DNA of 32,000 nt from the NCBI RefSeq assembly GCF_021054785.1, contig NZ_CP088239.1:720001-752000 (forward strand), read 5' to 3'. Shown piece after piece: positions 1,435-31,271 of the stretch (its first letter is position 1; each line of letters starts with the position of its first letter). The position numbers were made by a program, and so were the translations under genes. Source of the stretch: Tannockella kyphosi. Lineage in GTDB: Bacteria > Bacillota_I > Bacilli_A > Erysipelotrichales > Coprobacillaceae. The notes beneath the pieces are model-generated. The model saw only the letters and a program-made list of their open reading frames with translations. It had not been told where the DNA came from and did not search any database.

Positions 1435-1436
1435 TT

Positions 1437-1823
1437 ATGGAACAAAGTATATTTGAAAAAATGGGTGGTACTTACATCAAAGTTGGCGATTACTATGTAC
1501 CAAATTTAGGACAGTTTGATGACAAAGAAGAAACAGATGATAGACCTTTAGGCAAGTATGGAATGATACGAGAAACATTCCTAAAAGAACATAGAAAGCC
1601 TTTATACAATCATCTGTTACTTAGTGGAGAACTACATTCCCACTTGCGTGATGTAAATGAGCAATCACAATATTTACTAGACACACTACTGCCCCAGTAC
1701 AAAGCAAATCAAGGTGTCACAGAGGAATTAAAAGCCAGTAAACAACTTCTATGGGTAGGAATGGTAAACAACATCCTAGCACAGATTGAAGAAATCATAT
1801 ACAGCGAAATTGTGTATGTATAA
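1437..1823 (+). CDS. tnpV: Transposon-encoded TnpV family protein
   Basis: 128 aa with the TnpV-type pattern GDYYVPNL...LGKYG.IR..FLKEHRKPLYNHLLLSG.L..HL...WVG..NNI....EEII..EIVY. SD AAAGGAG lies upstream and the start is 2 nt after the recombinase stop. Confidence 0.8.
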   Translation: MEQSIFEKMGGTYIKVGDYYVPNLGQFDDKEETDDRPLGKYGMIRETFLKEHRKPLYNHLLLSGELHSHLRDVNEQSQYLLDTLLPQYKANQGVTEELKASKQLLWVGMVNNILAQIEEIIYSEIVYV

Positions 1824-1833
1824 TTTAGGATTT

Positions 1834-1868
1834 AAGACGGAGCAAGTAATATTGTTTCCGTCTTTTTT
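1834..1868 (+). terminator. Rho-independent terminator after tnpV
   Basis: Perfect 8-bp stem AAGACGGA (1834-1841) / TCCGTCTT (1857-1864) followed by a T-run to 1868. Confidence 0.7.
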
Positions 1869-1911
1869 CATATAAAAAATCAAATTAAAAACAGAAAAGG
1901 AGCATTTCATT

Positions 1912-2211
1912 ATGACAAAGAAAACAATCGTAGAGCAACTCAAAGAAACACAAATCGAGATTGAAAAAACAAGAACAGAAAAGAAACAAAAGGAACATCA
2001 ACTAGAAAAGTTGCAAAAGCGTGAACGAGAAAAGAATCGAAGCAAACGCACACGCAATTTAATTGAAAAAGGTGCAATCTTGGAAAGTATCAATCCATCT
2101 ATCCAATCCCTATCCAACGAGCAGTTACAAGCATTTTTGCAACAAGTATTGCAGAGTGAGCGAGCATTGCATTTGCTTAGTAAAATGACAGCAACCGAAG
2201 ATACGCAGTAA
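1912..2211 (+). CDS. Small charged coiled-coil protein, DUF3847-like; probable relaxosome accessory protein
   Basis: 99 aa and K/E/R/Q-rich, with a central RTRNLIEKGAILES block resembling proteins found upstream of MobA/MobL relaxases in Firmicutes. SD AAAGGAG lies upstream of the ATG. Confidence 0.55.
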   Translation: MTKKTIVEQLKETQIEIEKTRTEKKQKEHQLEKLQKREREKNRSKRTRNLIEKGAILESINPSIQSLSNEQLQAFLQQVLQSERALHLLSKMTATEDTQ

Positions 2212-2213
2212 CT

Positions 2214-2338
2214 CCCTTGATTACAAGGGCGCACTTATACACCATTTACAATGGTGCGTGCGTTCTGCGAAGCAATGGGGAGCTACTCTCCCCAAACCCC
2301 TTGTGTACTTTACGAAATGGCTACACCTTGCGAGGTGT
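2214..2338 (+). promoter_or_regulatory. Candidate oriT of the MobA/MobL relaxase (cluster of four perfect inverted repeats)
   Basis: IR1 is CCCTTG/CAAGGG (2214-2229). IR2 is CACCATT-tac-AATGGTG (2240-2256), followed directly by CGTGCG. IR3 is GGGGAG/CTCCCC (2277-2293). IR4 is ACACCT/AGGTGT (2323-2338). The segment is locally GC-richer than its surroundings and sits directly upstream of the relaxase gene. Confidence 0.45.
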
Positions 2339-2378
2339 GGTCATTTTCATAAAGTCTAATAAACCGAAAGGAGCAGTT

Positions 2379-3836
2379 ATGGCAATATTTCATTGTTCTA
2401 TTAAAGTCATAAGTCGAGGTAAAAGTAAATCTGCTGTTGCGTCTGCTGCTTACCGAAGTGGTGCTAAAATAACAAATGAATATGACGGAGAAACTCACGA
2501 TTACACACACAAAGGTGGTATCTATTACAGTGCTATTTTACTACCACCCCACGCACCAAAAGAATATGCAGACCGTAGCATTTTATGGAACGCTGTTGAG
2601 ATGATAGAAAAACAGCATAACGCACAACTTGCAAGGGAGATTGAAGTGTCGATACCGAAAGAAATCCCCTCATATCTATGGCGAAGAATGATGATAGATT
2701 TTTGCAATTCTAACTTTGTAAAGCAAGGTATGATAGCCGATTTATCTATCCACAACAAAGACCCTAACAACCCTCATTGTCACATCATGTTAACTATGCG
2801 ACCTATCAAAGAAAATGGCAAATGGGGAGCAAAATCACGCAAAGAATATATACTTGATGATAGTGGTAATCGCATTAAACTTCCAAGTGGAAATTGGAAG
2901 TCAACAAAAGTTGATACAATGGATTGGAACAGCCAAGACAACGCAGAAGTTTGGCGAGCAAACTGGAGTGAGCATTGCAATCTCTATCTTGAAAATTTAG
3001 GGTGTGAAGAACGCATAGACCATCGAAGTTATGAAAGACAAGGCATTGACCAAATCCCATCTATTCATTTAGGAGTGTCAGCAAGTCAGATGGAACAAAA
3101 AGGTATTGAAACAGATAGAGGAAATATCAACCGACAAATCCATGATGACAACAAGGAAGTTAAGATAATTAAGGCAAGAATTACAAGGCTTATGAAGTGG
3201 CAAAGAGAACTAGAAGTGCAACCATTAGACTTATCGAGAGGAGAATTTAAGTCGTCTATACTTGAAAAATTAAATACAAACAAAGGCATCGTTAAAAATC
3301 AATACCAAACGACTAAAGACCTCAAAAATTATGTTAATGTATGGAATTTCTTACAAGCAAATGACATTGGAAATCTCGAAGAATTCAATGCAAAGATACA
3401 AGCGATGAATGATAGTTTCTACGCTATTAAATCAGCGTTAAAGACCATTGAGAATGATATGGGCAAACTAGATAAGCAACTTGATTTATGGGCTGAATAC
3501 GAGCAATTAAAGCCTATTAGGAAGAAACACCTAAAACTGACGAGCAAAGAGCAAAAGTCTTTTTATGAGCAACATACAACTGAACTTGACCGAGCTGAAA
3601 TTCTCAATTCTAAATGGGCGAAATTCACAAATAGTGGTGGAAAAATAAGCACTTCTACTTGGAAAAGAGAGCGTAAAGAATTAGAGCAATTAAGCAAAAC
3701 TTGCGATGTGAAGATGAAAGCATATAAAGAAGAATTAGGCAAAGCAGAGAAAATACAAAAAGTACTTGATGAATTATTTGCTGATGTAAAACAAGTGCCT
3801 ACTAAGACTAAAGAGATTGAGAGGTATTCGAAATAA
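2379..3836 (+). CDS. MobA/MobL-family (MOBQ-type) relaxase
   Basis: The N-terminus MAIFHCSIKVISRGKSKSAVASAAYRSG is the classic MobA/MobL signature, with the catalytic Tyr in AAYRSG. The histidine triad is HNKDPNNPHCHIML. SD GAAAGGAG lies 7 nt upstream of ATG 2379. The track start at 2217 runs through the oriT hairpins and is rejected. Confidence 0.85.
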   Translation: MAIFHCSIKVISRGKSKSAVASAAYRSGAKITNEYDGETHDYTHKGGIYYSAILLPPHAPKEYADRSILWNAVEMIEKQHNAQLAREIEVSIPKEIPSYLWRRMMIDFCNSNFVKQGMIADLSIHNKDPNNPHCHIMLTMRPIKENGKWGAKSRKEYILDDSGNRIKLPSGNWKSTKVDTMDWNSQDNAEVWRANWSEHCNLYLENLGCEERIDHRSYERQGIDQIPSIHLGVSASQMEQKGIETDRGNINRQIHDDNKEVKIIKARITRLMKWQRELEVQPLDLSRGEFKSSILEKLNTNKGIVKNQYQTTKDLKNYVNVWNFLQANDIGNLEEFNAKIQAMNDSFYAIKSALKTIENDMGKLDKQLDLWAEYEQLKPIRKKHLKLTSKEQKSFYEQHTTELDRAEILNSKWAKFTNSGGKISTSTWKRERKELEQLSKTCDVKMKAYKEELGKAEKIQKVLDELFADVKQVPTKTKEIERYSK

Positions 3837-3854
3837 AAGTTAATATTCTGTCAA

Positions 3855-3883
3855 TTGACAAATGGCTAGAAATCAAATATAAT
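3855..3883 (+). promoter_or_regulatory. Consensus sigma-A type promoter of the R-M operon
   Basis: TTGACA (3855-3860), a 17-nt spacer, then TATAAT (3878-3883). The -35 box is embedded in the perfect 12-bp palindrome TGTCAATTGACA (3849-3860). Confidence 0.65.
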
Positions 3884-3918
3884 TACAAGTAGGATGTTTT
3901 AGGATGTGAGGTGTACTT

Positions 3919-5856
3919 ATGAGATTTATAGGCAGTAAGACTGCTTTGGTAAATGAAATAGAAAATGTAATAAATGAAAATACAATTGGCAATGAACAAA
4001 TTTTTTGCGACCTTTTTTCTGGCACGGGGACTGTCGCAAGGCATTTTAAATCAAGATATGAAATATATTCAAATGATTTATTGCATTTTTCTTATGTAAT
4101 TCAAAAAGCAACAATAGAAAATAATGAATTGCCACAATTTTTGAAGCTAAAAGAATTAGGTATCGTTGATCCATTTAGTTTTTTGGAGGAAACACCAATT
4201 GCTGATTGCAGTTACGATGAATACTTTATTACTCAAAATTATTCTCCAAATAAAAACTGTGATAGAATGTATGTATCAAACAAAAATGCAACTCGAATTG
4301 ATTTTATTCGCAATACAATAGAAGCTTGGAAACAATCTAGTTTGATTAATGACACAGAGTATTTTTATTTACTTGCAGGATTAATTGAGGGTGTTCCTTA
4401 TGTTTCAAATATTACTGGTACTTATGGTGCTTATTTAAAAGAATGGGACAAACGCACTTATAAAGAATTTGAAATGAGAAGATTAGAAGTTCTTGATAAT
4501 AAGAAAAACAATCGTTGTTTTAATACAGATGGTGGAAAATTAATTGAAGAACTTGAGGGAGATATTTTATATCTAGACCCACCATATAATTCTAGACAAT
4601 ATGCACCTAACTATCATCTGCTAGAAACAATTTCAAAGTACGATTACCCTACAATAAAAGGTGTAACTGGGATGAGAGATTATGCAGAGCAAAAATCATT
4701 ATACTGTGTTAAATCTGAAGTTTTATCAGCTTTTGATGACTTGATTTCTAAGGCAAAATTCACACATATCGTTGTAAGTTACAGTAGTGATGGCTTAATG
4801 AGTGCAGAACAAATTGAAGCTGTTTTGAAAAAACATGGTATCAGTGATACGTTCAAAAGATATGATATTCCATATAGAAAATACAAAGGTAAATTATCAA
4901 AACAAGCAGATACATTGTATGAATATATTTTTTATATCAAAAAAGATTTTATTTTGGAAAATAGTGATATTATTTCTTCTTTTCCTAACAATACAATGGT
5001 TATGCAGTCAAAGAAATATATTAAAAGTCCTCTAAATTATATTGGTGGAAAATATAAATTACTACCGCAGATTATGCCATTGTTCCCACCTCAAATTAAT
5101 ACTTTGGTCGACCTTTTTTCAGGTGGTGCTAATGTTGGGATTAACACTAATGCTAATAGTATAATTTGTAATGATATTAACACAAAAATTATAGAAATGT
5201 TTACAGCATTTCAGCAAATAGATGAACAAGAAATAGTATTTCAAATTGAAAGAAATATTAAAAGTTTTAAGTTATCTAAGGAAAATCAAGAGGGTTTTTT
5301 GAAATTCAGAGATTACTACAATAACTGCCCAAATCCGATAGATTTATATACATTAGCTTGCTACTCTTTCAATTATCAGTTTAGGTTTAATAATGACCTT
5401 AAATACAATAATCCGTTTGGGAAAAACAGAAGTCAATTTTCAGAAAATATGAGAACAAATTTATTACTATTTGTGCGAAAGTTAAAACATACAAACATTC
5501 GATTTACAAACATGGATTTTGCAAGGTTTGATATATCAAACTTAGGAGAAACAGATTTAGTATATTGTGACCCACCATACCTTATTACTACAGGAAGTTA
5601 CAATGATGGTAATAGAGGTTTTAAGGATTGGGGCGAAAACGAAGAAACAGAACTGTATGAACTTTTAGATAAATTGAATGTGCAGGGAGTAAAGTTTGCA
5701 TTATCCAATGTGCTAACACACAAAGGTAAAACTAATGAAATACTTATGAACTGGAGCAAGAAATATAAAGTTGTTCACTTGAATTTTGATTATTCTAATT
5801 CAAGCCATAATACTGTAAAGGGGGTAAGTGATGAAGTGTTGATAATAAACTATTAA
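3919..5856 (+). CDS. Tandem two-domain N6-adenine DNA methyltransferase, M.FokI-like (type IIS)
   Basis: 645 aa starting MRFIGSK as in M.FokI. Domain 1 has FCDLFSGTGTV and DPPY (4576-4587). Domain 2 has NYIGGKYKLLP, VDLFSGGANVG and DPPY (5569-5580). SD GAGGTG lies upstream. Confidence 0.9.
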   Translation: MRFIGSKTALVNEIENVINENTIGNEQIFCDLFSGTGTVARHFKSRYEIYSNDLLHFSYVIQKATIENNELPQFLKLKELGIVDPFSFLEETPIADCSYDEYFITQNYSPNKNCDRMYVSNKNATRIDFIRNTIEAWKQSSLINDTEYFYLLAGLIEGVPYVSNITGTYGAYLKEWDKRTYKEFEMRRLEVLDNKKNNRCFNTDGGKLIEELEGDILYLDPPYNSRQYAPNYHLLETISKYDYPTIKGVTGMRDYAEQKSLYCVKSEVLSAFDDLISKAKFTHIVVSYSSDGLMSAEQIEAVLKKHGISDTFKRYDIPYRKYKGKLSKQADTLYEYIFYIKKDFILENSDIISSFPNNTMVMQSKKYIKSPLNYIGGKYKLLPQIMPLFPPQINTLVDLFSGGANVGINTNANSIICNDINTKIIEMFTAFQQIDEQEIVFQIERNIKSFKLSKENQEGFLKFRDYYNNCPNPIDLYTLACYSFNYQFRFNNDLKYNNPFGKNRSQFSENMRTNLLLFVRKLKHTNIRFTNMDFARFDISNLGETDLVYCDPPYLITTGSYNDGNRGFKDWGENEETELYELLDKLNVQGVKFALSNVLTHKGKTNEILMNWSKKYKVVHLNFDYSNSSHNTVKGVSDEVLIINY

Positions 5857-5875
5857 CATTTCTCACAGATACGAT

Positions 5876-7648
5876 ATGATAAATATATTACCTACACACG
5901 CAACATCTTTTAGAGCTTTTGGTTGGGTACAAGACCCAAGTAATTTCAGAAGCCTTTGTGATGTGGTTGCGATATTTGATGAAAATTCTAAGAAACACAA
6001 CGATTTGAAAGATACAATCATACCTCGTCTTGTTGAGGAAAGGGATGGCAAAGACAGACTGTTAAAATCAATGGATAGTAGACCATTAAAACTATCATAC
6101 CTAGATTTAGTTGGTACGTCTTTTATGCCTCGTGGTTCAGCAAGATGTAATGGTATCGTGCAAGCTACTGTTATTGGTCAAGTTAGGGAATTTATAAGCG
6201 ATTGGCCAGCAGACAATTTTGTCCGCTGGGCATATGCCTTTGGTTTCATCAAGTATAATTATTCTGATGATACCTTTGAAATTACAGAAAAAGGGTTGGA
6301 ATTGTCATTAGCAAAAACTCTTGGTGATGATTTGAATGAAATAGAAAAAGAGTTACTGACTACTGCAATACTAGCATACCCGCCTGCTGTTAGAATTTTA
6401 AGATTATTGAGCGAAAACGAGGGAACGCACCTTACGAAATTTGAAATAGGGAAACAATTAGGCTTTATAGGCGAGGATGGATTTACAAGTTTACCTCAGT
6501 CAGTTCTTGTGCGTGAATTAGCTATAACAGATGATGCAAAAGAAAAGAATAAAATGAAAGCTGATTGGGATGGGTCGTCTGATAAATATGCAAGAATGAC
6601 ATCGAAATGGTTGGCGAAATTAGGCTTAGTTATTCAAAAGCCAAAGAGAATAACCGTTACTATAGCTGATGAGACTTATACGGAAACGATAGGGCAGGCA
6701 TATATTATCTCAGCAAGTGGAATATCTGCACTTAATAGAACTATTGGCAAAAGTAAACATAAAAGAATAGCTAAAAATGTATGCTTTGAAATGTTAGCAA
6801 CAAAAGGAAGCGATCGAGAATACCTAAGAACAAGAAGAACTTATATTTTGAAATTCATTTCAGAAAATAAAGGTGAAATTAGATATGATGAAGTTAAGGA
6901 AAAATTGAAACAAGTCGCTTTTGAAGAAAGTATTGAAACTATTAAAGCAGACTTAAAAGGACTAATTAATTTAGGGCTTAATATACAGGTTTATGCTAAT
7001 TCTTGTATTTGGAATGATGAAATAAATGAGTTCACACTTCCGTTGACACAGAACTTGACAAAATCAAGCTTGACTGAGATAAAAGAAGAAATCAGACCTT
7101 ATATTACACATATTTCTCACGAATACTTATCACTTATTGACTTAGCTTATGACAGTAAACAAAATAGATTATTTGAGATGAAAACACTTGAATTATTGAT
7201 TGATGAATGTGAATACAACGGACTTCATTTAGGTGGAAGCAGGAAACCAGATGGAATTATTTATACCAGTGAAGATGCTGAAAATTATGGTGTAATTATT
7301 GATACAAAAGCATATTCAAAAGGCTATTCTTTACCAATATCACAAGCTGATGAAATGGAAAGATATATCAGAGAAAATCAAACAAGAGATGATGAAGTTA
7401 ATCCGAATGAATGGTGGAACAATTTTGACAATCGCATTTCAAAACATTATTTTATGTTTATATCGGGGCATTTCATTGGCAACTATAAATCACAAATCGA
7501 AAGAATAAGCAGAAACACAAATACAAGAGGAACATCTTTAAATGTGAAAAATTTGCTGCTGTGTGCTAACCTCTATAAGGCAGGCGAGCTGACTCATCAT
7601 AGTATAGGGGAAAAAATAAATAACAGTTATGAGTTTGTGCTACAGTAA
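5876..7648 (+). CDS. FokI-like type IIS restriction endonuclease
   Basis: 590 aa with long colinear matches to remembered FokI: FGWVQ(D/N)P, AYPPAVRIL, HLTKFE.GK.LGF.GE.GFTSLP, W.GSSDKYARM, REY.RTRR. The cleavage domain has HLGGSRKPDGIIYT (Asp 7250-7252), VIIDTKAY (Asp-Thr-Lys 7301-7309) and QADEMERYIRENQTR. Confidence 0.9.
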   Translation: MINILPTHATSFRAFGWVQDPSNFRSLCDVVAIFDENSKKHNDLKDTIIPRLVEERDGKDRLLKSMDSRPLKLSYLDLVGTSFMPRGSARCNGIVQATVIGQVREFISDWPADNFVRWAYAFGFIKYNYSDDTFEITEKGLELSLAKTLGDDLNEIEKELLTTAILAYPPAVRILRLLSENEGTHLTKFEIGKQLGFIGEDGFTSLPQSVLVRELAITDDAKEKNKMKADWDGSSDKYARMTSKWLAKLGLVIQKPKRITVTIADETYTETIGQAYIISASGISALNRTIGKSKHKRIAKNVCFEMLATKGSDREYLRTRRTYILKFISENKGEIRYDEVKEKLKQVAFEESIETIKADLKGLINLGLNIQVYANSCIWNDEINEFTLPLTQNLTKSSLTEIKEEIRPYITHISHEYLSLIDLAYDSKQNRLFEMKTLELLIDECEYNGLHLGGSRKPDGIIYTSEDAENYGVIIDTKAYSKGYSLPISQADEMERYIRENQTRDDEVNPNEWWNNFDNRISKHYFMFISGHFIGNYKSQIERISRNTNTRGTSLNVKNLLLCANLYKAGELTHHSIGEKINNSYEFVLQ

Positions 7649-7650
7649 AC

Positions 7651-8373
7651 ATGGAAAGGAAAGAACTATTGCGTAAATTACCAAACTACATCAATGAAAA
7701 TGCAAAATACAATAATCGATATGTAGCATTCATTGATATTTTAGGATTTAAAGAGCTAATTCTCAAGACGGATTTTCGTAATATCACATCCGTTTTTGAT
7801 AAAATAACACACGAGATATTTTGCTTTGACAGTACACTTGCATTATCTATAGGTATACCCAAATATTCTCAGATCAATACCTATATTATGTCAGATAGTG
7901 TTGTATTAAGTATTGATGTTGACGCACCTCAAGCTCTGATTGCACTTGTTAAAGCAACTGCATATATTCAAACAGCTTTAATAAAAAGAAATCCATCAAT
8001 CCTATCTCGTGGTGGGATTTCCATCGGAGAATATTATCAAGAAAGAGATAAAGCCTTTGGTTCAGCACTTGTTAAGGCTCATCAATTAGAAAGTTGTAAA
8101 GATAAAGGAAAAGGGGCAATATTTCCTCGTGTAATATTCGATAATGACATTTGTTTAGAACAAATAAAAGAGAGTATTATTCTTGATGATTATGACGGAT
8201 TATATTTTGTTGATTATCTGAAAGTGGCTTTGAAAGGCAGTTCTTTTCAATCGTTTATCAAAGAAGATATTAGCAAAAAACAATTATGTGTATCCGATAA
8301 TAAGATTAAAGAAAAGTATGATTGGTATGAAAAATATTATAAGCTATCAATGGATAAAATAAAGAAAATGTAG
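7651..8373 (+). CDS. Stand-alone minimal palm-domain nucleotidyl cyclase-like protein (class III cyclase / GGDEF / mCpol superfamily); function unknown
   Basis: 240 aa with ATG 3 nt after the endonuclease stop. The ordered motifs are VAFIDILGFKEL (7729-7749, beta1 metal Asp), IMSDSVVL (7888-7905, second Asp), SRGGISIGE (8005-8031) and GSALVKAHQLES...GAIFPRVIF (from 8059). This is colinear with cyclase-homology domains (F.D..GFT / GD / R.GIH.G / G..VN.A.R.ES..pG.I.vs). The gene call is solid but the functional call is tentative. Confidence 0.5.
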   Translation: MERKELLRKLPNYINENAKYNNRYVAFIDILGFKELILKTDFRNITSVFDKITHEIFCFDSTLALSIGIPKYSQINTYIMSDSVVLSIDVDAPQALIALVKATAYIQTALIKRNPSILSRGGISIGEYYQERDKAFGSALVKAHQLESCKDKGKGAIFPRVIFDNDICLEQIKESIILDDYDGLYFVDYLKVALKGSSFQSFIKEDISKKQLCVSDNKIKEKYDWYEKYYKLSMDKIKKM

Positions 8374-8409
8374 TATATAAAATCTAAAACAACTAAATAT
8401 CTGATGCTG

Positions 8410-8455
8410 AAAGCACTTATTTACTTTGAATACCAAAGTTAATAGGTGCTTTTTG
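8410..8455 (+). terminator. Rho-independent terminator closing the R-M/cyclase operon
   Basis: 19-nt arms AAAGCACTTATTTACTTTG (8410-8428) and CAAAGTTAATAGGTGCTTT (8434-8452) pair at 17/19. The loop is AATAC and a T-run follows. Confidence 0.6.
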
Positions 8456-8481
8456 CATTATCAAAGAAAGGAATAACTAAT

Positions 8482-8658
8482 ATGGAAAATCAAACATTAA
8501 AGCAAGACACGAACACTAAAAATCGTTTTAAAAAGAAAATTGGCAAGACTATCTATGAAGTAACTGTATACTCCAGTCAAACGAGTAAAGAAACCTTGCA
8601 AGATAAGATGGAGAGATTGATTGAAAACGAATGTGTAAGTATTGTAAATCAGGAATAA
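8482..8658 (+). CDS. tnpW: TnpW-like small transposon protein
   Basis: 58 aa from ATG 8482 with SD AAAGGA upstream. The block KKIGKTIYEVTVYSSQTSKETLQDKMERLIENE matches the remembered TnpW family pattern (IG.TTY.V.V.FS.TS.ET..DK..RL). The track start at 8446 (GTG) lies inside the terminator stem. Confidence 0.55.
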   Translation: MENQTLKQDTNTKNRFKKKIGKTIYEVTVYSSQTSKETLQDKMERLIENECVSIVNQE

Positions 8659-8686
8659 ATAGTATATTTTCTTAAACTACCCTTGA

Positions 8687-9370
8687 CAAAACGCAACAGA
8701 TGATACACTTCTTTCAGCTATGGAAAATGCAAACAATGCAGAAGTTGATACGGATATGAAAGGGATTGGAACACCTGCAACTCGTGCCGGTATTATGGAA
8801 AAACTCATTAAAACTGGTCTTGTAGAACGTAAAGGTGATAAGAAAGTAAAATATTTTATCCCTACACACAAAGGCATTGCACTTGTGACAGTATTGCCCG
8901 AAGATATTCAGTCCCCACTACTAACAGCAGAATGGGAAGAAAAATTAAAGGAAATCGAACAAGGTAAGCTATCGGCAAATGCCTTTTTAGAAGAAATTTC
9001 TAGTATGACTACTTCTCTAGTAAACACCTATGAATGTATCAAGGGAGCAAATACTCTGTTCCCTAGAGAAAATGCAGGTGCTAAAGTCGGCACTTGCCCT
9101 CGATGTGGAGCTGATGTAACCGAGAATAAAAAAGGCTTTTGCTGTTCCTCTAGAGATTGTCAATTCGCAATTTGGAAAGAAAACAAGTTCTTTACTGCTA
9201 AGAAAAAAACAGTAACCAAAGCTCTTGTATCAGAACTACTAAGTAAAGGTAAATCTACTCTCAAAGGTTGCTACTCAGCTAAAACTGGAAAGAATTATGA
9301 TTGTATCGTAGTGCTTGATGATACTGGTGGTAAGTATGTAAACTTTAAGATGGAGTTTGGGAAAAAGTAG
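8687..9370 (+). pseudogene. topB: 3' remnant of DNA topoisomerase III (topB), about the last 227 codons
   Basis: The frame opens at 8687 just after an in-frame TGA, and similarity precedes the first ATG (TDDTLLSAMENAN). It contains the type IA topoisomerase motif GIGTPATRAGI and a C-terminal Cys4 zinc ribbon (CPRCG...CSSRDC). The roughly 450-aa N-terminal catalytic part is absent. A short product from ATG 8720 is possible. Confidence 0.75.
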
Positions 9371-12894: not shown

Positions 12895-13110
12895 ATGAAA
12901 TTCACAGTTGAAGAAACAAACCTAATGTGCATTTATGGTACGGACTCAAGACAAGGCTTGATTGCAGAGCTTGAAGAAATGCAACCACATTTACAAGAAG
13001 ATGAAGTAGAGTTAGTAGACCTTACAAGGTCCACTCTAGCAAAACTTCATACTATGAGTAATGAAGAATTTGAGGAAGTAAAAAGTGAACTGGTAGCTGA
13101 TTTTGAGTAA
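12895..13110 (+). CDS. Transposon-transfer assisting family (TTRAP-like) small protein
   Basis: 71 aa. The N-terminus FTVEETNLMCIYGT and the acidic tail match the remembered family pattern (FT.EE.NLMCIY.T). The start is 2 nt after the upstream stop, with GGAG upstream. Confidence 0.55.
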   Translation: MKFTVEETNLMCIYGTDSRQGLIAELEEMQPHLQEDEVELVDLTRSTLAKLHTMSNEEFEEVKSELVADFE

Positions 13111-13182
13111 TAAAATAAATTTTCTTATTAACATTTGAACTGTAGATTTTTGATATTTATTTATGGTATACTTTATGTGCGT

Positions 13183-13245
13183 AGATTATCTTGATAATCT
13201 AAAGGCAACGAAAACACGGTTGAAATACCGTGCAATTTATATAAT
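13183..13245 (+). promoter_or_regulatory. Twin-hairpin conserved leader motif, copy B
   Basis: Hairpin 1 is AGATTAT-cttg-ATAATCT (13183-13200). Hairpin 2 is CACGG-ttgaaata-CCGTG (13215-13232), followed by CAATTTATATAAT. An extended -10-like TGGTATACT lies about 20 nt upstream. Confidence 0.55.
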
Positions 13246-13285
13246 CTCATAGGGTGCTGAAATCAAGTGTGCAAAGGAGGATATA

Positions 13286-13489
13286 GTGAAAAGATTTGAA
13301 AAGGTTTTCTACTTAGTAGAAGTGTTAATTATAGTAATTTTTATTTTAACATGTCATTTTATTTCCCAAATCGAATTTAACAGTAATGGTATAATTGTTT
13401 TGCTATTATCTTTATTATTAACTGTGTTAGCATGTGCATTGAATGTAGCTGTATTGATACTACAAAAAGAAAAAAATAAAAGTGAGTAG
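13286..13489 (+). CDS. Small two-TM membrane protein
   Basis: 67 aa with a GTG start and a strong SD AAGGAGG 6 nt upstream. It has two hydrophobic helices. Confidence 0.5.
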   Translation: MKRFEKVFYLVEVLIIVIFILTCHFISQIEFNSNGIIVLLLSLLLTVLACALNVAVLILQKEKNKSE

Positions 13490-13576
13490 TAAATATCTGG
13501 TTGCCGAACATAATGAGCAATACACTTGTACCAGTACCAAAAACAAAAAACGAATAAAATAAATCTAATTAAACAT

Positions 13577-13612
13577 AGCACTTGTTGACTAAACCTCAAT
13601 GAGTGCTTTTCT
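13577..13612 (+). terminator. Terminator-like hairpin immediately upstream of the 2614-aa gene
   Basis: AGCACT (13577-13582) pairs with AGTGCT (13602-13607), with an inner TTGA/TCAA pairing, followed by TTTTCTTA. It is preceded by the same box AAAATAAATCTAATTAAA (13556-13573). Confidence 0.45.
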
Positions 13613-13643
13613 TATACCCAAAATTTAACTAGGAGGAAAAATT

Positions 13644-16600
13644 ATGGCATTAAAACGAGAAGAAGTTGCCCAGTTGTATGAAAATACCTCTAGGCAAGTA
13701 ACCAGTAGTCTTGCGAATTGGACTAACTTTTTAGAAGTTGTTGGCAAGCTCTACAAATATCCTTACCATGAGCAGCTTATGATTTACGCACAAAAACCCG
13801 ACGCCACTGCTTGTGCTGAGTTCGGTTTATGGAACAATCGCATGAATAGGTATGTAAAACGAGGTACAACGGGTATCGCACTTATTGATCCGAGTAACGA
13901 TAATCAGAAAATCAAATATGTCTTTGATTTAGCAGATACGGGTGGCAAAGAAAATGCACAACGACCTTTGTTGTGGGAAATGCAAAATCACCATGAAAAA
14001 CCAATCCTTGAAATGCTACAAGATAAATTTGATGTATCAAGTGATAATCTGTATGAAGCAATCGACATCATTGCAACAACACTATCAAAAGAGTATTATG
14101 ATGACAACAAAAAGGATATTCCTTATCTTGTAGAAGATAGTTTTTTAGAAGAACTTGATGATTTCGATATTGAGCAAACTTTTAAAAATGCTTTATCAGT
14201 CAGTGTTGCTTATACTCTTATGAAGCGATGTGGACTTGATACAGAGGATAGATTTTCACATGAGGACTTCTTACCTATCTTCGATTTTAACACTACTGCT
14301 ACTGTTACATTCTTGGGTACAGCAGTAAGTGAACAAACGGAACAAGTATTTAGAGAAATTGCAAAAACCATTGTAAAAACCATTGTAAAAACTGAAAGGA
14401 GCATACAACATGAACAACTTGACTTACAAAACGGAGGGCGATTACAAAATCCCGAACTTGGAATTGAAACAAGAACAGCCAGTAACACTGGGCAAATATG
14501 GGAAAATGAGAAAAGCACATCTCATGGAACATCGCAAACCATTATTCAATCACCTACTACTGAGCGAGAAATTGACAGCTCATCTAGTGGAAATCGACCA
14601 AACAGCGAACAGACGAATGGAACAGTTGATGAAAGACCTCGAGAAGAAACAACCGTCACCGAACAAGATGACACACCAACTAGAATGGGTAGCACATCAG
14701 AACAGCCTACAAGCACAGGCAGAGGAAGTAATCTTGACGGAGTTGATTTACAGCTAAGACCTACTCTTGATGATATTGTGCTTGATGAAACTGTTAAGCC
14801 ACAGCAAATGAGCCTATTTCCAACCGAAGAACAACAGATTACAAGTATAGCCGACAGACAAAATGCCAACACACTCAGTGTGACAGCAAAAAGTCAGTCG
14901 GCTATTTCTATTTCAGAAGAAGAAATCATTCATGGCTTACTAAGAGGAACTGGATTTGTTGATGGGAAATTGCGTGTATATGATTTGTATCAAAAGGATT
15001 TATCACCTAAAGAAATTGCCAATTCTATCAAGTCCGAATATGGACATGGTGGAGGAAGTCACGACTATTTAGATGGTAATAGAGGTTGGATAGATTGTGA
15101 GCCTTCCAAAGGATTATTATTTAGTATTCATGGTATTGAGGGAAAATTCAAATTATCGTGGTCTGATGTTGAAAAGAAAATTAGGTCATTAGTTACTAAT
15201 GACAGTTATTTAACTATGGATGAAAAAGCAAAGTATGAAGAACAACAACTCGCTAAAGCAGGAATTGATAGTAAATTTTTCTTAGATGATGAAGAATTAT
15301 CGGGTATCGTAAATAACTTTATATTAGCTAGTGATGTAACGGATCAAACATTGCAACATCAAACAGATATTTATGAAGCATTTGTCACTCAAACAAGTCT
15401 TGAAGATAAATTGAGTTTGATTAAATCTACCTACGGAAATCTTGATACATCTTACGTTACTGAGGGTGGTGATTATCTTGAAGAAGTAAAATCCGACGTG
15501 ATTGGAATTAACTTTAAACGAGGTGGTCAGCCTTTTTCTGTTACCTATGATGATATGGTTACTCGTATTGATACTCTTATTGCAAATAACGATTATCCTC
15601 ATAAAGAAGATGTTGTAGAAATCACGCAAGATGACATTGACAATGCTATTTTAGAATGGAATGGTGATGAAGAAAGCAAAGCTCGTGTTCTATCTTATAT
15701 GCGTGAACATAGTCGTGAACGAGGTACTGCACTATGGTTACAAAATGAGTATGGCAATAATCTTCCTGCATTACTTGTTGTAAAAGGTGAATTATCTGAA
15801 AGTATCCCTTGGGCAAAAGTGCAGCGACAACTTGGCAAATTCATTGCTGAAGATAAATTCTTTGTGACAGATAGCAAAGATAGATACACCCTAGAACAGA
15901 CCTCAGATGCCTTTGAGGAGCCTTTTGCTGTAAGGGATAATCTAATCCCCGATAACTCACTAGACCGTTACCATGCAGTAGAGGGGCATATACAGACCTT
16001 TGAAACAGAGGAAGATGCACAAACAGTTATTGAGCAGTTAAATGATAATGCAAGATATACAGTTAAGTATATTACAGAGGGATTTGACAGTTCCTATGTA
16101 CTTGATGATAAAGAATTTGACATTGAGGGATTTGTAAAGCATGAATACGCAGATTTGTTCTATCAATCCTATGGAACTCGTGAAGAAGCACAAGCAGTTG
16201 CAGATAAACTTAATGCACTTTCAGAACATACTCCACCCGAGTTGATTTTCTTTGTTGATTTTAAAGATGTTGATATTGATTACTCAAAGTACAATGATAG
16301 AGATGTCATTGGTTATAATATTGATGGTGTTAAGTACACAGTTGGAAAAAGTGGGGATTTAACTTATACAACGCAAGAAACAGCTATTACACCTTATGGT
16401 GAAGTGCTAGGCGATAATATGACTGCTGATGTATATGAGAAATTCAAAGCTTGGAAAGAAAGCCTTTCAGCTCCACAAGAAGAAATCACAGAACCAGTAC
16501 AAGTGGTAAAAGGTGAAAACTTCCGTATTACAGATAGTGATTTAGGTCATGGAACAAAGTCTGAAAAATACAAAGCGAATATGCAAGCTATTAGAACTTT

Positions 16601-25464: not shown

Positions 25465-28400
25465 CTAAATTAAGCTATCCTTAACATCAAACTTCGTTTT
25501 GAAATCTTCATAGCTATTTACCCAGTCAAATTTAATGAGATTGGATACAGCTTCAAAGTGGAGAGTACCACATTTGATTTTGTTTTGTTCAACCTCAGTT
25601 AAATCACTACGTTCTTTACCAGCTTTTGTTTCGACTATAAAGTAGATACCTAATGTTGTATCATTAGTCCCATCTTCTTTGCAGATTATTGCCCAGTCGG
25701 GAGAGTAGTTTCCGTAAGGAGTATCTATCACAAATCCACCTTTTTTAAGCTTTGTAAACAATACGATGTTTGAATTTTGCTCAAGTTTTTCGGCAAACTC
25801 TTTTTCACCTTTACTATCAAGTTTGTAATATTCGTTAAGAGCTGATTTTCTGTTTTTATCAGCTTTAAATACTTTCCACTCATCAATAAAATCTTCTTCT
25901 GTTATAGTGTCTACTGCGAAGATTTGCCCCTCATTTAGTTCGTAACCCTCGATGACTTCATAAGAATATACACTATTAGCTTTCGCATCATTCAGTGCTG
26001 TTAAAATCTTTTCCGTAATCTTATCCAATATGTCCGTGAAGTTTAAAGCTTCTCTTTTTTCTATGCCACTCAGTATTTTAAAAATCGCAAGTCGAGGGAG
26101 CATAGTGTGGTACATGATATAGTTGACAATTTCAAAATCACTTTTTGGAACAACCTTTGAACCTACCTCAATATCAAACTCCTTGTCACCCGATTTTTCA
26201 AGTTCAAACATACCAACATCAGAGAAGTTCGCTTTACTGGTTGTTATATTTACAGTTTGCTTAATAGCGAAAAATTGCAGATAATTATTTATATCATTTA
26301 TCATCGAATTGATAAAATCATCTTTGTTGATATTGCATCTATATAGTGTTTTCTTTTTTAGCTTTTCACAAAGGTTGCTATACAGCTTTTCAAATTCATC
26401 TTCGGTAACAAATGCTCTCACTTTGTTATTGTAAGATGGATTATCCTTGTTTTTAACCTCGATACGTTTACTGCCTTTTTCAACCATTAACTGTACGAAC
26501 TGTTCTTTTAGTTTAATGCTATGTTCCTGTAAAACTTCATCTGTAAAGATAAGAGTTTCAATAGCTTTCATAGTTTTTTCTGCATTATTTTTTAAAATAT
26601 TATTGCTATCAAAGATACCATTGTTTTGAAGTTCTATTTTGAAAGTATCAACTAAATGAGGAGTGATGTATGCTTTCGGAATACCTGCTTTAGTAAGAGC
26701 AGCAGTAAGTACATCAGCAGTAACTTCATTCTTGTTGAAGTTCATACTATCATTAAAGTCATCTTGTAGCATACGAGAGAAGTTCTCATAGCTATCGTTT
26801 GCGATAACAGTTAATTCGTTGATGTTTGGATCTAAACATCTATTACCCAATGTATCAACGGGCAATCTTAGACCACGACCAATTTCTTGTTTTTTTGCAA
26901 TTTCGCTACTGCCATTTTTAAGAGTACAAAGGGTAAATACATTTGGATTATCCCAACCCTCACGAAGTGCAGAGTGAGAGAAGATAAAGCTAAGTGGTTC
27001 ATCAAATGAGATAAGTTCATCTTTCTTTTCTAAAATCAAGCTAATAGCTCTATCAATATCTTCTTGTGATTTTGCAGTAACATCAATGCCTTTTTTATCG
27101 TATTGTACTTCTGATATATTTTGCTTTTTATCAAGAGCAAAATAACCCTCACGAACAGCTAATACATCATCATAGGATTTAAAGCAATCTTTATATTTTT
27201 CTATTTTAGATTTGTTGTTAATAATAAATGCTTGATATTCTTCATCAAAAATTCTTAGGTACTCACCACGAGTATCTTCTCTATCATAGTCACGTACATT
27301 CTTTACAGCATCAATAAAAAACAAGGTAATTGCTTTGATGTTTTTACCTGCTTTAAGCATTGATAATTGCTTTTTAAAATGGCTGTGTATAGCTAGTCTT
27401 ATTTGAATACGGACTGCTTGTATATCATCAAGACCATTGTTGCCTTCACCAATATTTAGCCTAAGCTCGCCACTATCAGTGAAAATTCTTAGTGGATTTT
27501 CTTTGTGAGGATTTTCAGCAATACGCATATTTTTGTATTGAGGGAGTCCACCCGAAATATCATGTAGTGAAGTGTTACCAATAACATCGACAGTAGTGAA
27601 GCGAATGCTATCACCTTGCTTTTGGGTAAACATCTCAATTCGTGCTTTTAAATCCTTTGTAAATGAAATATAACGGATATAAGGGTAGTCCCTATCAATA
27701 ACACCATTTACTGTTTTAACACCGATTTTCTTTACCAAATCATTTTGATAAGCAGCATAAGAGTCTAACTTATATATTTGGTTATATAGTTGTTTATGCG
27801 TAGCAGAATAACGTAAAAGAAATAGTGGCTCTAGTTGTTCTAATGCTTGAAGTGACTTGGATTTTTTGCCTTTTTGCCCCTCGATTTTTTGTGGCTCGTC
27901 AATGATAATAACTGGGTTAATTGCTTTAATATCGTCCCATAAAATTTGCCCGTATTCATCATCAGTACGGATTTTATTATTGTCTTTATTAAATGCTTGG
28001 ATGTTCATAACACAAATACTTAAATCGGTAGATTCAACAAGGGAACTACTGATTTTTTTTAGATTATTACTATCATAAACAAAGCTATGCTTATCTATAT
28101 CAAGTCCGTATAATCTTTGGAAGTGTTCATTTAATTGTTCAATGGATTTTTCTACACCTTTACGAATTGCAATACTTGGTACTACAATCATAAATTTTTT
28201 TAGATTGTATTCTTTGTATAATTCTAAAATGGTACGCAGATACACATAAGTTTTACCAGTACCAGTTTCCATTTCTATTGTGAAGTTATTACCCTCTAGG
28301 AAGTTATCAGCAAATAGGTTGTTATTTAGTTGCACATTTCGTAGATTGTTAAGTACCTTTGTCCCGATGACGATACCCTCATTACGAATTGGATCTCCCT

Positions 28401-28542
28401 CAGCAAATTTTCTAATACGTTCGGGTCTATAAATACTGTCGGTTCTTCTTGGTGAACCCTTGAATAAATCCACAGTGGATTTAATCGCTTTTAATTGATA
28501 ATCTAATTCATCATCAAATTGGAAATTTATTCTTTTTGCCAT
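25465..28542 (-). CDS. res: Type III restriction enzyme, Res subunit
   Basis: 1025 aa. Helicase motif I is METGTGKTYVY and motif II is IIIDEPQK. The C-terminal PD-(D/E)xK block is YSPDWAII...YFIVETKAG. SD GAGAGGAG is upstream. Confidence 0.9.
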   Translation of the reverse strand: MAKRINFQFDDELDYQLKAIKSTVDLFKGSPRRTDSIYRPERIRKFAEGDPIRNEGIVIGTKVLNNLRNVQLNNNLFADNFLEGNNFTIEMETGTGKTYVYLRTILELYKEYNLKKFMIVVPSIAIRKGVEKSIEQLNEHFQRLYGLDIDKHSFVYDSNNLKKISSSLVESTDLSICVMNIQAFNKDNNKIRTDDEYGQILWDDIKAINPVIIIDEPQKIEGQKGKKSKSLQALEQLEPLFLLRYSATHKQLYNQIYKLDSYAAYQNDLVKKIGVKTVNGVIDRDYPYIRYISFTKDLKARIEMFTQKQGDSIRFTTVDVIGNTSLHDISGGLPQYKNMRIAENPHKENPLRIFTDSGELRLNIGEGNNGLDDIQAVRIQIRLAIHSHFKKQLSMLKAGKNIKAITLFFIDAVKNVRDYDREDTRGEYLRIFDEEYQAFIINNKSKIEKYKDCFKSYDDVLAVREGYFALDKKQNISEVQYDKKGIDVTAKSQEDIDRAISLILEKKDELISFDEPLSFIFSHSALREGWDNPNVFTLCTLKNGSSEIAKKQEIGRGLRLPVDTLGNRCLDPNINELTVIANDSYENFSRMLQDDFNDSMNFNKNEVTADVLTAALTKAGIPKAYITPHLVDTFKIELQNNGIFDSNNILKNNAEKTMKAIETLIFTDEVLQEHSIKLKEQFVQLMVEKGSKRIEVKNKDNPSYNNKVRAFVTEDEFEKLYSNLCEKLKKKTLYRCNINKDDFINSMINDINNYLQFFAIKQTVNITTSKANFSDVGMFELEKSGDKEFDIEVGSKVVPKSDFEIVNYIMYHTMLPRLAIFKILSGIEKREALNFTDILDKITEKILTALNDAKANSVYSYEVIEGYELNEGQIFAVDTITEEDFIDEWKVFKADKNRKSALNEYYKLDSKGEKEFAEKLEQNSNIVLFTKLKKGGFVIDTPYGNYSPDWAIICKEDGTNDTTLGIYFIVETKAGKERSDLTEVEQNKIKCGTLHFEAVSNLIKFDWVNSYEDFKTKFDVKDSLI

Positions 28543-28578
28543 GATTTAACTCCTCTCAAATTTTATATATGTGGCTCA

Positions 28579-30555
28579 TTAAATAAATTCCACTGTATAG
28601 GTCTGTTTTTTCTCACCACTGTTGCGTTCTACAAGTGCTTTTAGATGTCTGAACGAATAATCTTTAAGGTCAATATCATCTTTAAAGGCACTATCTCTAA
28701 ACACAAATTTAATAGGCAGTGGGGCAAGGGCTGCAATTTTTTCTAGAAGTTCAGTTGTAATTTCTGTTTCAAGGCATACAAGATAAGAGCTTGCATATAG
28801 GTAGGTTCTTTCGCCAATATCATCCAATATTTCAAGTGTATCAGATAGGGGAACATCTTTTTGACGGAGCATAATTTCATATACAACATCAATATCTTTT
28901 GCACCAAATACAAAGTCCATACGATCACAATCATTTGCATATTCTAATACACTTTGTTGAACTGAATTTTCAATTATATTCCACTTAATATTCGTATCAG
29001 TAGTACGGAACACTTTAAAGCCGATATCAGGCACTTTTTTAGGTGGCTCATCAAGTTTTAATTGCTCGTTATTTTGTTCAATTTCAAGTTTTATTTTTTC
29101 GCCAGCACGTCGGATGCGTTCTTTTCCTATTTCGCAAATGTTTTTATAACCAGCGTTATAAGCTTCTGATTTTTCGTCGGTTATTTCTGGAAACTGCACC
29201 ATAATGAATTTACGATTGCCACCATCTTCGGCATTAAGTTGCATTACTGCGTGGGCTGTTGTGGCAGAGCCGGAGAAGAAGTCGAGGATGATGTCATTAT
29301 CACCTTGACTTATTATTTGAATAAAAAATTTAATCATTTGAGAATATTTAGGGAAATCAAAAAAATTATTGCCCATAAGTAATTTCAACTCATCAGTTCC
29401 TTTTTTTGTTGTAGCTAAATTGCTTAATACAGAGCGAGGATTGATAATAGTTTTTTCTTTTTCATAGAATAAAACTCCACTGCTATTAAAATAAAAATCT
29501 GTTACTCGTTGCCCTTTACTGTCAAAAACTTCATGTCCCTTAATAAAGTTTTCAACTTGGTTTTTCATTGCAAAACCAGCTTTAAGTGTAGTGTCTTTGA
29601 CAAGTTTTCCATTTATAAATTGCATTTCATCTGATAGTATATATGTCTTTTCGCTACCACCAATTTCACCAGTGAATGTTGCATTTTCTCCTTCAAACCT
29701 AAATCCTTTAGGAAAAATAATTTCAACAGCAGGATTTTTTACAGAGATTTTTTTCAATGCCCCATGTCTAATATATTCTCCTTTATTGTAGTTTTTAAAA
29801 TTAGGTAACATATTTTTGTTCCTACTATAACATAATACATATTCATGCCCTCTAGTAAAATGTCCAGCAGTTGTACCTGTTCCCAAATCCCATATTAAAG
29901 TAGATATATTATTTTCTTGACCAAAAACTTCATCACAAACTTTCTTCAAATTATCAACTTCATAATCATCAATACTAATAAAAACAACGCCATCATCAGT
30001 AAGTAAATTTTTTGCAATCTTTAGTCTTGGATACATCATATTAAGCCAGTTTGCGTGGTATTTGTTTTTTGATTTTTCGTTTTTTTGTAGTGGGTTTCCG
30101 TCCTCGTCTGCCACACCCTCTGCAACATCACTTTCTTTTTTATCCATTGCGAATTTATCGTTATATACAAAGTCATTACCAGTGTTATATGGTGGGTCTA
30201 TGTATATCATTTTGATAGAACCATAGTAATTTTGGCGAAGAAGTTTCAGCACTTCAAGGTTATCGCCCTCAATATATAGGTTTTCAGTTTCTAGTGGGTT
30301 TTTGCTACCCGCGGCTATATATTTTAATGTTCTGTTATAAACATCTTCTTGTGATATTTTCTTTGCAGATTGTTTGCCCGACCAAGTAAGCTCGTACTTT
30401 TCGCTGTCCACTTCCTCAATCTTCCCCAGTTCTTCCTTTAATGCCTCAACATCAAGCATTCCGTCCTTAACAGCACTAGGGAAAAGCTGTGCTAAGGCTT
30501 TTAGATTGTCACCGACAATGTTGTTTATTCCTTGTGGTATTTTATTGTTTTCCAT
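28579..30555 (-). CDS. mod: Type III DNA methyltransferase, Mod subunit (N6-adenine, beta class)
   Basis: 658 aa. Motif IV IYIDPPYNTGNDF precedes motif I FFSGSATTAHAV. SD AAAGGAG lies inside the 3' end of the upstream gene. Confidence 0.9.
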   Translation of the reverse strand: MENNKIPQGINNIVGDNLKALAQLFPSAVKDGMLDVEALKEELGKIEEVDSEKYELTWSGKQSAKKISQEDVYNRTLKYIAAGSKNPLETENLYIEGDNLEVLKLLRQNYYGSIKMIYIDPPYNTGNDFVYNDKFAMDKKESDVAEGVADEDGNPLQKNEKSKNKYHANWLNMMYPRLKIAKNLLTDDGVVFISIDDYEVDNLKKVCDEVFGQENNISTLIWDLGTGTTAGHFTRGHEYVLCYSRNKNMLPNFKNYNKGEYIRHGALKKISVKNPAVEIIFPKGFRFEGENATFTGEIGGSEKTYILSDEMQFINGKLVKDTTLKAGFAMKNQVENFIKGHEVFDSKGQRVTDFYFNSSGVLFYEKEKTIINPRSVLSNLATTKKGTDELKLLMGNNFFDFPKYSQMIKFFIQIISQGDNDIILDFFSGSATTAHAVMQLNAEDGGNRKFIMVQFPEITDEKSEAYNAGYKNICEIGKERIRRAGEKIKLEIEQNNEQLKLDEPPKKVPDIGFKVFRTTDTNIKWNIIENSVQQSVLEYANDCDRMDFVFGAKDIDVVYEIMLRQKDVPLSDTLEILDDIGERTYLYASSYLVCLETEITTELLEKIAALAPLPIKFVFRDSAFKDDIDLKDYSFRHLKALVERNSGEKKQTYTVEFI

Positions 30556-31269
30556 TTATTTTTTCTCCTTTAATTTTAACAAAATGGTATTTGTTTCTTT
30601 CAATTTCTCCTCTAGCATATCTTTAAGTCTTACTATTTCGGGTTTATAGTCAAGTATGGCTGATTTATACAATGACATATCAAAACAAAAATCGAGATTA
30701 TGCTCCTTATTTCGTTCATCTATAAAATTACAATTAATTCGTACATCAGTGGCATTCACAAACTTCTTGTCTGAGCTTTTATATTCCGTATCTATTATAT
30801 CGACATAAATTATATATTGTTGTTTCGGTGGCAGTGAAATAGGGGTTTGTTCTAATTTTGATATATGTTCAAAGAAAATTTCTTTATATATGCATTTTTT
30901 TGCTTCTTGATTAAATTTGATTTTTAATTCTTTAGCACTTGAAATTCCCGTATTTTCAACAATAAAAGCTAATCTACTTTCAATAAATTTAAAATTTATA
31001 ATTATATTAGGCTTGTTCATTTCATCATAAAGTCTGAAGTTTTGCCAAAGTGCCAACGCTCCTAAACAAACAGTTCCTATAAACGTCAAAAAACTACCAT
31101 AAAATGATAACAACTCATAATCTTTAAAAGATGTTACGGTGAAACAAAACCCCTTCATAGGGTATATAAGGTTAATTATTTGTGGAATAAAAGCTGAAAT
31201 AATTATAATAACTACTATAACTATAATCCAAAACCACCATTGTTTATAAAAAGGTTTTTTCTTATTCAA
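30556..31269 (-). CDS. Two-TM membrane protein with a beta-rich C-terminal domain and coiled-coil tail, unknown function
   Basis: 237 aa. TM1 is WWFWIIVIVVIIIISAF and TM2 is FLTFIGTVCLGALALWQN. The stop codon abuts the mod start codon. Confidence 0.7.
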   Translation of the reverse strand: MNKKKPFYKQWWFWIIVIVVIIIISAFIPQIINLIYPMKGFCFTVTSFKDYELLSFYGSFLTFIGTVCLGALALWQNFRLYDEMNKPNIIINFKFIESRLAFIVENTGISSAKELKIKFNQEAKKCIYKEIFFEHISKLEQTPISLPPKQQYIIYVDIIDTEYKSSDKKFVNATDVRINCNFIDERNKEHNLDFCFDMSLYKSAILDYKPEIVRLKDMLEEKLKETNTILLKLKEKK

Positions 31270-31271
31270 AT

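Follow-up and report, generated by a model that had tools for sequence, protein, structure and literature searches.

Can a single stretch of bacterial DNA, read on one strand in two frames, encode both a part of a giant protein and a complete smaller one? This question is raised by a 32,000-nucleotide stretch of the Tannockella kyphosi genome (NCBI RefSeq assembly GCF_021054785.1, contig NZ_CP088239.1, positions 720,001 to 752,000 of the forward strand), hereafter called the window, in whose own positions all coordinates are given. The region is a Tn1549-like conjugative element. Within it, a gene for a polyvalent protein of 2614 amino acids (aa) encloses, on the same strand, a 115-codon open reading frame (ORF) related to TnpV. 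The original prediction, made from the sequence alone, proposed either that this is genuine dual coding or that three ancestral genes (an ArdC-N gene, tnpV and a helicase-methylase gene) have been fused through tnpV in the wrong frame. We conclude that the same DNA very probably encodes both a tether of the giant protein and a separate TnpV protein, and that this dual coding is conserved: the overlap is kept in every related locus collected, and stop codons are avoided in the giant frame. Fusion through tnpV remains one possible ancient origin of the arrangement, but it does not compete with dual coding as an account of the present state.

What the original prediction stated about the sequence was confirmed throughout. 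The ORF list and the coordinates agree that the ATG-initiated ORF lies wholly inside the giant ORF, in its +1 frame ((14410-13644) mod 3 = 1). Its product was matched to the Pfam TnpV model PF14198 with a score of 113.8 bits (gathering cut-off 27; E 5.2e-33), residues 5-113 aligning to positions 1-111 of the 111 in the model. The full-length resemblance to the free-standing TnpV encoded at 1437-1823, on which the original prediction had relied, survived statistical testing, with 40% identity and a BLASTP E of 1e-26. The nested TnpV was 47% identical to a TnpV of a Campylobacter plasmid, where the gene lies downstream of a recombinase, and its sequence is identical to WP_249030209.1, 'TnpV protein [Tannockella kyphosi]'. 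AlphaFold modelled the protein confidently, with a predicted local distance difference test (pLDDT) score of 85, as a beta-hairpin and four helices.

The giant protein consists, in order, of an ArdC-N-like head, a disordered linker, a small folded domain, an N6-adenine methylase and an SNF2/DEAD helicase. Pfam matched N6_Mtase/Eco57I, SNF2-rel_dom, DEAD and Helicase_C in it, and its homologues are 2000-3000 aa long. The ArdC-N identity of the head had been proposed before; neither Pfam nor Foldseek detected ArdC-N there and NCBIfam gave no match for the head, but a comparison with the ArdcN domain of the neighbouring upstream gene by hhalign supported it (96.6%, E 6e-10, 61 columns). With an ArdC-N-type head, DNA-modification and helicase modules and conjugative-element neighbours, the product has the make-up of a polyvalent protein, a class described in conjugative elements by Iyer et al. 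2017 (PMC5512222). AlphaFold was confident for residues 1-260 and 420-520 of the giant protein, and residues 261-392 had a pLDDT of ~28. The giant-frame translation of the overlap is thus modelled as a disordered tether between the ArdC-N-like head and the next domain. A 12-nt tandem duplication noticed earlier just ahead of the nested gene was recovered by Tandem Repeats Finder (TRF) with a period of 12 (Table 1); it amounts to a 4-residue insertion relative to the homologues and is peculiar to the window.

We then asked whether relatives have one gene, three genes or the same overlap. An intact TnpV ORF occupied the corresponding site and frame, and the giant frame ran through it without a stop, in 97/97 related loci. 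These comprise 6 loci from reference genomes or metagenome-assembled genomes (MAGs), 80 metagenome loci and other cases from plasmids and annotated genomes. The TnpV search of reference genomes returned the 6 loci at 47-72% identity, all nested in the +1 frame of an open frame that ran for >3000 codons in the 4/6 whose sequence extended far enough. The metagenome loci came from a scan seeded on head motifs and were ranked by tblastn with a 520-aa query of head plus linker, to which they had 36-54% identity; a full-length TnpV ORF in the same place and frame, with the third frame closed, was present in 80/80 of them. The remaining cases were two Listeria monocytogenes assemblies and loci of Virgibacillus, C. 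perfringens, Cohnella, Monoglobus, Subdoligranulum, C. cadaveris, Acetobacterium and Dehalobacter, cases that are more distant and in which the nested TnpV of Virgibacillus and C. perfringens is only 33-34% identical. A query of giant aa 1-520 found 1457 homologues, and in 22/22 examined the linker aligned almost gap-free. Across the overlap, the third sense frame has 7-18 stops in the relatives and 16 in the window. The antisense ORFs at 14210-14872, earlier raised as a caveat, are present but not conserved: no antisense frame was open in all relatives, and in the window each antisense frame of the overlap has 2-7 stops.

A search with the head only, against 1.84 billion cluster representatives, gave 4305 matches at E<=1e-3 and 857 at E<=1e-30. 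Among the matches listed, the alternative-frame linker signature was found at about residue 261 in 94/112 head-homologue representatives of at least 400 aa; the other 18/112 mostly resemble internal deletions, insertion junctions or chimeras. P0022 (509 aa) is a seemingly truncated or deleted variant and has no mobile-element insertion alongside.

For the selection acting on the two frames we examined 34 sequences, left after dereplication at 93% nucleotide identity. The giant frame can acquire a stop only where a T at position 3 of a TnpV codon is followed by a codon beginning with AA, AG or GA. T was found in 0/1224 of these stop-prone contexts and in 319/2697 (12%) of the other contexts, and its overall frequency at TnpV position 3 was 8% in the overlap against 24% in the flanks (39% in the window's own flanks). 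When TnpV was recoded with the codon usage of the flanks, ~6 giant-frame stops were expected, with a median P(open) of 0.002. For the window 12.3 stops were expected and 0/2000 recodings were open, so that the open giant frame reported in the original prediction, which does encode the peptide given there, lies far beyond chance. In six free-standing tnpV genes the equivalent frame is interrupted by 4-14 stops, as many as shuffling predicts, and the free-standing tnpV of the window has 11 in the giant-equivalent frame (shuffle expectation 12.3).

This avoidance of stops bears on an improbable alternative, namely that the head fragment, tnpV and the downstream methylase-helicase are three separate genes and that the continuity of the giant frame is not translated. 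Annotation derived from the Prokaryotic Genome Annotation Pipeline (PGAP) is in line with three genes, as it calls TnpV and either places the start of the large gene further downstream (Listeria, C. cadaveris, Monoglobus) or omits it (Acetobacterium, Dehalobacter), and the exact 2614-aa product is missing from a 15-billion-protein collection in which TnpV is present. However, if ribosomes did not read through, avoiding giant-frame stops (P(open) ~0.002 per sequence) would be pointless; no locus has a head-specific stop codon; and the head and the domain at residues 420-520, both conserved and confidently modelled as folded, would have to be discarded. The annotations of Virgibacillus and C. 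perfringens, moreover, call a full-length gene across tnpV. The NCBI annotation of loci L087, L096, L099, L100 and L101 calls the nested TnpV and begins the giant gene 0.1-2 kb downstream or omits it; in these loci the giant frame is intact for 1730-2605 codons and the conserved head is left unannotated.

Substitutions in the overlap follow the TnpV frame. Variability at TnpV codon positions 1/2/3 was 0.325/0.247/0.470, and the least variable site was position 3 of the giant frame, while the flanks showed the normal giant-frame pattern. In the overlap, pN/pS was 0.35 in the TnpV frame (pS 0.30) and 1.9 in the giant frame (pS 0.088); the giant-frame values were 0.28 for the head (pS 0.42) and 0.39 for the downstream region (pS 0.50). 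Synonymous divergence in the TnpV frame is thus 30-40% below that of the flanks (0.30 vs 0.42-0.50), a reduction that the original prediction had proposed as a check on dual coding. Overlap-aware counting over 27 independent pairs gave dNN 0.116, dNS 0.080 and dSN 0.329, and omega values of 0.35 (confidence interval 0.31-0.40) for TnpV and 1.45 for the giant frame. By these two measures, omega and pN/pS, no amino-acid-level constraint was detected on the giant frame within the overlap, and mean identity was 0.58 for TnpV vs 0.37 for the linker. TnpV is thus selected at the amino-acid level, and the giant frame within the overlap is selected essentially only for openness.

We consider it quite improbable that the giant protein alone is made, with the TnpV-like ORF being a relic that is not translated or a side effect of constraint on the giant frame. 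Prodigal-type gene callers and some RefSeq records do annotate the large gene alone. Yet the substitution pattern fits the TnpV frame rather than the giant frame, whose peptide shows neither order nor constraint; homologues with as little as 33% protein identity still have the ORF, its ATG and a strong Shine-Dalgarno sequence; and TnpV, with its confident fold, is a full-length member of a family that has free-standing genes.

As predicted, an ideal Shine-Dalgarno sequence, GAAAGGAG, precedes the nested ATG, at 14394-14401 and with a spacing of 8 nt. The ATG was kept in 87/87 loci and the GAAAGGAG motif was conserved 7-9 nt 5' of it. In the giant frame GAAAGGAG reads E-R-S, and these residues of the giant protein are conserved because the Shine-Dalgarno sequence is. 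No RNA structure was found around the internal ribosome-binding site, where the local RNA is unstructured. The nested gene thus appears to have an independent translation start. A promoter scan of 13300-15000 gave no enrichment over shuffles, and no internal promoter is claimed.

A Shine-Dalgarno-like sequence within a coding region can also stimulate +1 frameshifting, as is established for prfB, and the nested frame is indeed +1. A programmed +1 shift near the internal sequence would then yield a fusion of the head to TnpV with no independent initiation. We regard this as very improbable. The ATG is invariant and stands at canonical Shine-Dalgarno spacing, the TnpV frame is closed by a stop 21 nt 5' of the ATG in the window, and the length of its upstream open stretch varies among loci. 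No longer protein with a TnpV domain was seen, all 120 listed of 171 matches being <=163 aa, and the site has neither the 0-frame stop nor the hungry codon of a prfB-like shift. Finally, an indel of assembly or sequencing that falsely joins or splits the ORFs of the window, a general possibility raised by the original prediction with nothing beyond that to speak for it, is practically excluded, because the same arrangement and relative frame are conserved in 97 independently assembled loci from many taxa, including complete genomes and plasmids.

Under conserved dual coding, ribosomes starting at AGGAGG/ATG 13644 would read frame 0 through 14410-14757, and the frame-0 product of the overlap would be an intrinsically disordered tether of ~115-130 residues that joins the ArdC-N-like head to the methylase-helicase remainder. 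Ribosomes loading at GAAAGGAG, 8 nt from ATG 14410, would read the +1 frame and produce a separate folded TnpV of 115 residues, so that two initiation sites on one mRNA would give two products. At the site of the overlap the host protein can accept nearly any hydrophilic sequence, so that overlapping would cost nothing more than the avoidance of stops. TnpV is assumed to serve DNA transfer or establishment of the element and would benefit from obligatory co-expression with the giant protein.

Several points weigh against dual coding or limit how far it can be taken. The query that ranked the 80 metagenome loci contained the linker and may have favoured linker-bearing relatives, a bias that the head-only census partly corrects, and the sampled loci are related, so their counts are not independent events. 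Some family members lack the linker, P0273 by a clean deletion and P0381 by carrying a different short linker, and TnpV is therefore dispensable for some variants. The omega above 1 in the giant frame probably reflects the unequal severity of changes at TnpV positions 1 and 2 and not positive selection. TnpV had no match in NCBIfam, and Foldseek of its model against the PDB and viral models returned nothing, so that no function can be assigned from these searches. The actual translation of both products, and any functional coupling between them, we infer from sequence comparison.

Other searches gave little more. Look-ups of the proteins P0133 and P0149 returned no record. An Xis-like role, in recombination directionality, has been postulated for TnpV (PMC3158075); Foldseek of the pLDDT-85 model against the PDB gave nothing at E<=0.001 and no Xis-like match. 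A PHROGs search found a family of unknown function only, a scan of viral contigs with the free-standing TnpV found no match, and blastn of the region against plasmids found a single short partial match. The features of the locus are collected in Table 1.

Table 1. Positions of the giant gene, the nested gene and associated features in the window.
Feature	Position	Strand	Basis
Giant polyvalent-protein gene, 2614 aa	13644..21488	+	ORF list; Pfam domains; homologues
Giant-gene Shine-Dalgarno sequence AGGAGG	13631..13636	+	7 nt 5' of ATG 13644; read directly
Head domain, giant aa 1-260; ArdC-N-like core aa 24-84	13644..14423	+	AlphaFold2 (AF2) pLDDT ~85-95; hhalign
12-nt tandem repeat, 2.9 copies, encodes TIVKTIVK	14358..14392	+	TRF; absent from homologue alignment
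Internal Shine-Dalgarno sequence GAAAGGAG for tnpV	14394..14401	+	8-nt spacer, then ATG 14410
Nested tnpV gene, 115 aa, ATG start, +1 frame of giant gene	14410..14757	+	ORF list; Pfam PF14198
Disordered linker, giant aa 261-392; overlap = aa 256-371	14424..14819	+	AF2 pLDDT ~27-30
Folded domain 3' of linker, giant aa ~420-520	14901..15203	+	AF2 pLDDT ~84; kept in homologues
Free-standing tnpV paralogue, used as control	1437..1823	+	Pfam TnpV E 3e-34; directly 3' of large serine recombinase

How old is the pair, and how did it arise? Pairwise identities of TnpV and of the head co-vary (Pearson 0.81), and the pair is therefore old and co-inherited. The arrangement has co-diverged with the head and is the normal state of the gene family. 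It may have originated by fusion through a pre-existing tnpV or by the birth of tnpV inside the linker. In a bootstrapped neighbour-joining tree, two free-standing tnpV lineages fell inside nested clades (82% and 86%) and the deepest branches were nested genes, which hints at escape from the nested state. On that reading, all or much of the TnpV family originated in the linker or was at least long maintained there, and the free-standing tnpV genes of the Tn4451 type are escapees. We regard this as possible but doubtful. The tree was built by neighbour joining from 115 residues with an arbitrary root and only six free-standing genes, and is weak; TnpV, in addition, is well folded while the linker is disordered, which usually marks the linker frame as the younger. 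If true, a bacterial gene would have left an overprinted locus to found an independent, widely spread family.

The nearest relative in the genome collection, L001 (TnpV 72% identical), lies on a 1349-bp contig of a Brevinema sp. MAG, a spirochaete. All other hosts are Bacillota, and L001 is probably a mis-binned fragment or the result of horizontal transfer.

The head-coding region shows signs of insertions in some relatives. The head homologues P0358, P0361, P0363 and P0279 share a break at about residue 192-195 (...FRNAAEVSISY...), past which the sequence is unrelated and in one of them resembles, by eye, the N-terminus of a serine recombinase. This suggests that the head-coding region is an insertion hot spot for mobilizable elements. 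Integrative and mobilizable elements (IMEs) have been reported integrated in the SNF2/COG4646 gene of integrative and conjugative elements (ICEs), with which the head break points are consistent (PMC7168690). Serine-recombinase IMEs that carry tnpV are also reported to insert into the SNF2/COG4646 gene (PMC7168690, PMC9815147). The nested tnpV was considered as the target of such elements and rejected, because the junction proteins break in the head at about residue 195.

The gene order of the element is a topoisomerase remnant, an ArdcN-LPD16-YodL-DUF4316 polyvalent protein, TTRAP, the giant gene, a NikA-like protein and a relaxase, and it is identical in the Listeria, C. cadaveris, Acetobacterium and Dehalobacter elements. 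Only the C-terminal end of the ICE topoisomerase gene is left in the window (1-8700 and 8720-9370 region; Topoisom_bac positions 336-410 plus Toprim_Crpt), and the syntenic elements have a full protein of ~690 aa at the topoisomerase position. The block upstream of the remnant resembles a mobilizable element that has interrupted the topoisomerase gene by insertion. It contains a large serine recombinase that extends past the left window edge, the free-standing TnpV, a MobA/MobL relaxase and a FokI-type methylase and endonuclease. Between TTRAP and the giant gene there is a gap of ~530 nt (13110-13643) with a 67-aa hydrophobic ORF (13286-13489) and a terminator-like hairpin (13577-13607); in Listeria, TTRAP adjoins the giant gene directly, with no such gap. 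The stretch appears to be a small insertion just 5' of the giant-gene ribosome-binding site. On the minus strand, 25465-31985 holds a type III-like restriction-modification pair, consisting of a ResIII/DEAD helicase with an endonuclease domain and an N6_N4 methylase, which is a second defence cargo besides the FokI-type system at 3919-7648. Two paralogous ORFs of 237 aa, which had no Pfam match, adjoin the pair.

Both protein families were already known, and RefSeq lists the nested ORF under the name 'TnpV protein'. We found no prior description of the overlap of tnpV with the giant gene in the literature accessible to us. What appears to be new is a very well-supported pair of bacterial genes nested on the same strand. 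Two things set it apart: the nested gene has free-standing counterparts, and the host frame encodes a disordered tether.

One of the two closest parallels is provided by the spanin genes Rz and Rz1 of phage lambda, in which a complete gene with its own start lies wholly inside another, in the +1 frame of the same strand. The product of Rz1, a lipoprotein of 60 aa, forms one complex with that of Rz. The two cases share a nested same-strand +1 gene with its own start, conservation of both frames and a mobile element as the setting. They differ in that the nested TnpV has free-standing relatives, whereas we know of no free-standing homologues of Rz1 outside spanin systems, and in that the host frame of tnpV is a disordered tether. 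Unlike the Rz/Rz1 complex, there is no known functional link between TnpV and the giant protein. The other is found in Bacillus subtilis, where comS is likewise a small out-of-frame ORF with its own ribosome-binding site inside a very large multidomain Firmicute gene, srfAB. However, comS has 46 codons, is limited to a narrow group and overlaps an enzymatic region that encodes a condensation domain, whereas tnpV has 115 codons, is conserved across many Bacillota families and confines its overlap to a disordered linker.

Among mobile elements, Tn4451/Tn4453 and related IMEs carry a TnpV of the same family (PF14198), which occurs only on mobile elements and mostly in Gram-positive hosts. Unlike the nested gene, the classical tnpV is free-standing and lies directly 3' of the large serine recombinase TnpX, an arrangement seen in the window copy at 1437-1823 and in the Campylobacter plasmid copy. 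The giant protein resembles the described polyvalent proteins (PMC5512222) in its ArdC-N-like head, methylase and SNF2 helicase, and it adjoins the ArdcN-LPD16-YodL-DUF4316 protein and TTRAP. That study makes no mention of TnpV, overlapping frames or frameshifts, and a linker that doubles as a second gene lies outside the theme it describes. Another accessory gene hidden in a larger mobile-element gene is ardD, which lies antisense within tniA of Tn5053 and for which there is experimental evidence from one element (PMC3533173). The nested tnpV differs from this opposite-strand, single-element case in having a family-wide comparative signal.

Long, conserved genes nested on the same strand are rare in bacteria and often disputed, and the tnpV case provides a very clean comparative signal, which spans hundreds of sequence clusters and in which both products are recognisable. 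It points to a route by which an overlap can be nearly free of cost, through a disordered inter-domain tether that needs only to stay open. There are also consequences for annotation. PGAP/RefSeq-style annotation truncates or drops the giant gene, and the truncation loses its ArdC-N-like head, while Prodigal-style calling keeps the giant gene and drops TnpV; many database entries for 'TnpV' are in fact nested genes. Tn1549-like elements are vehicles by which resistance genes spread in gut Firmicutes, Listeria and clostridia, and in these elements the overlap ties the uncharacterised TnpV to an early-acting polyvalent gene.

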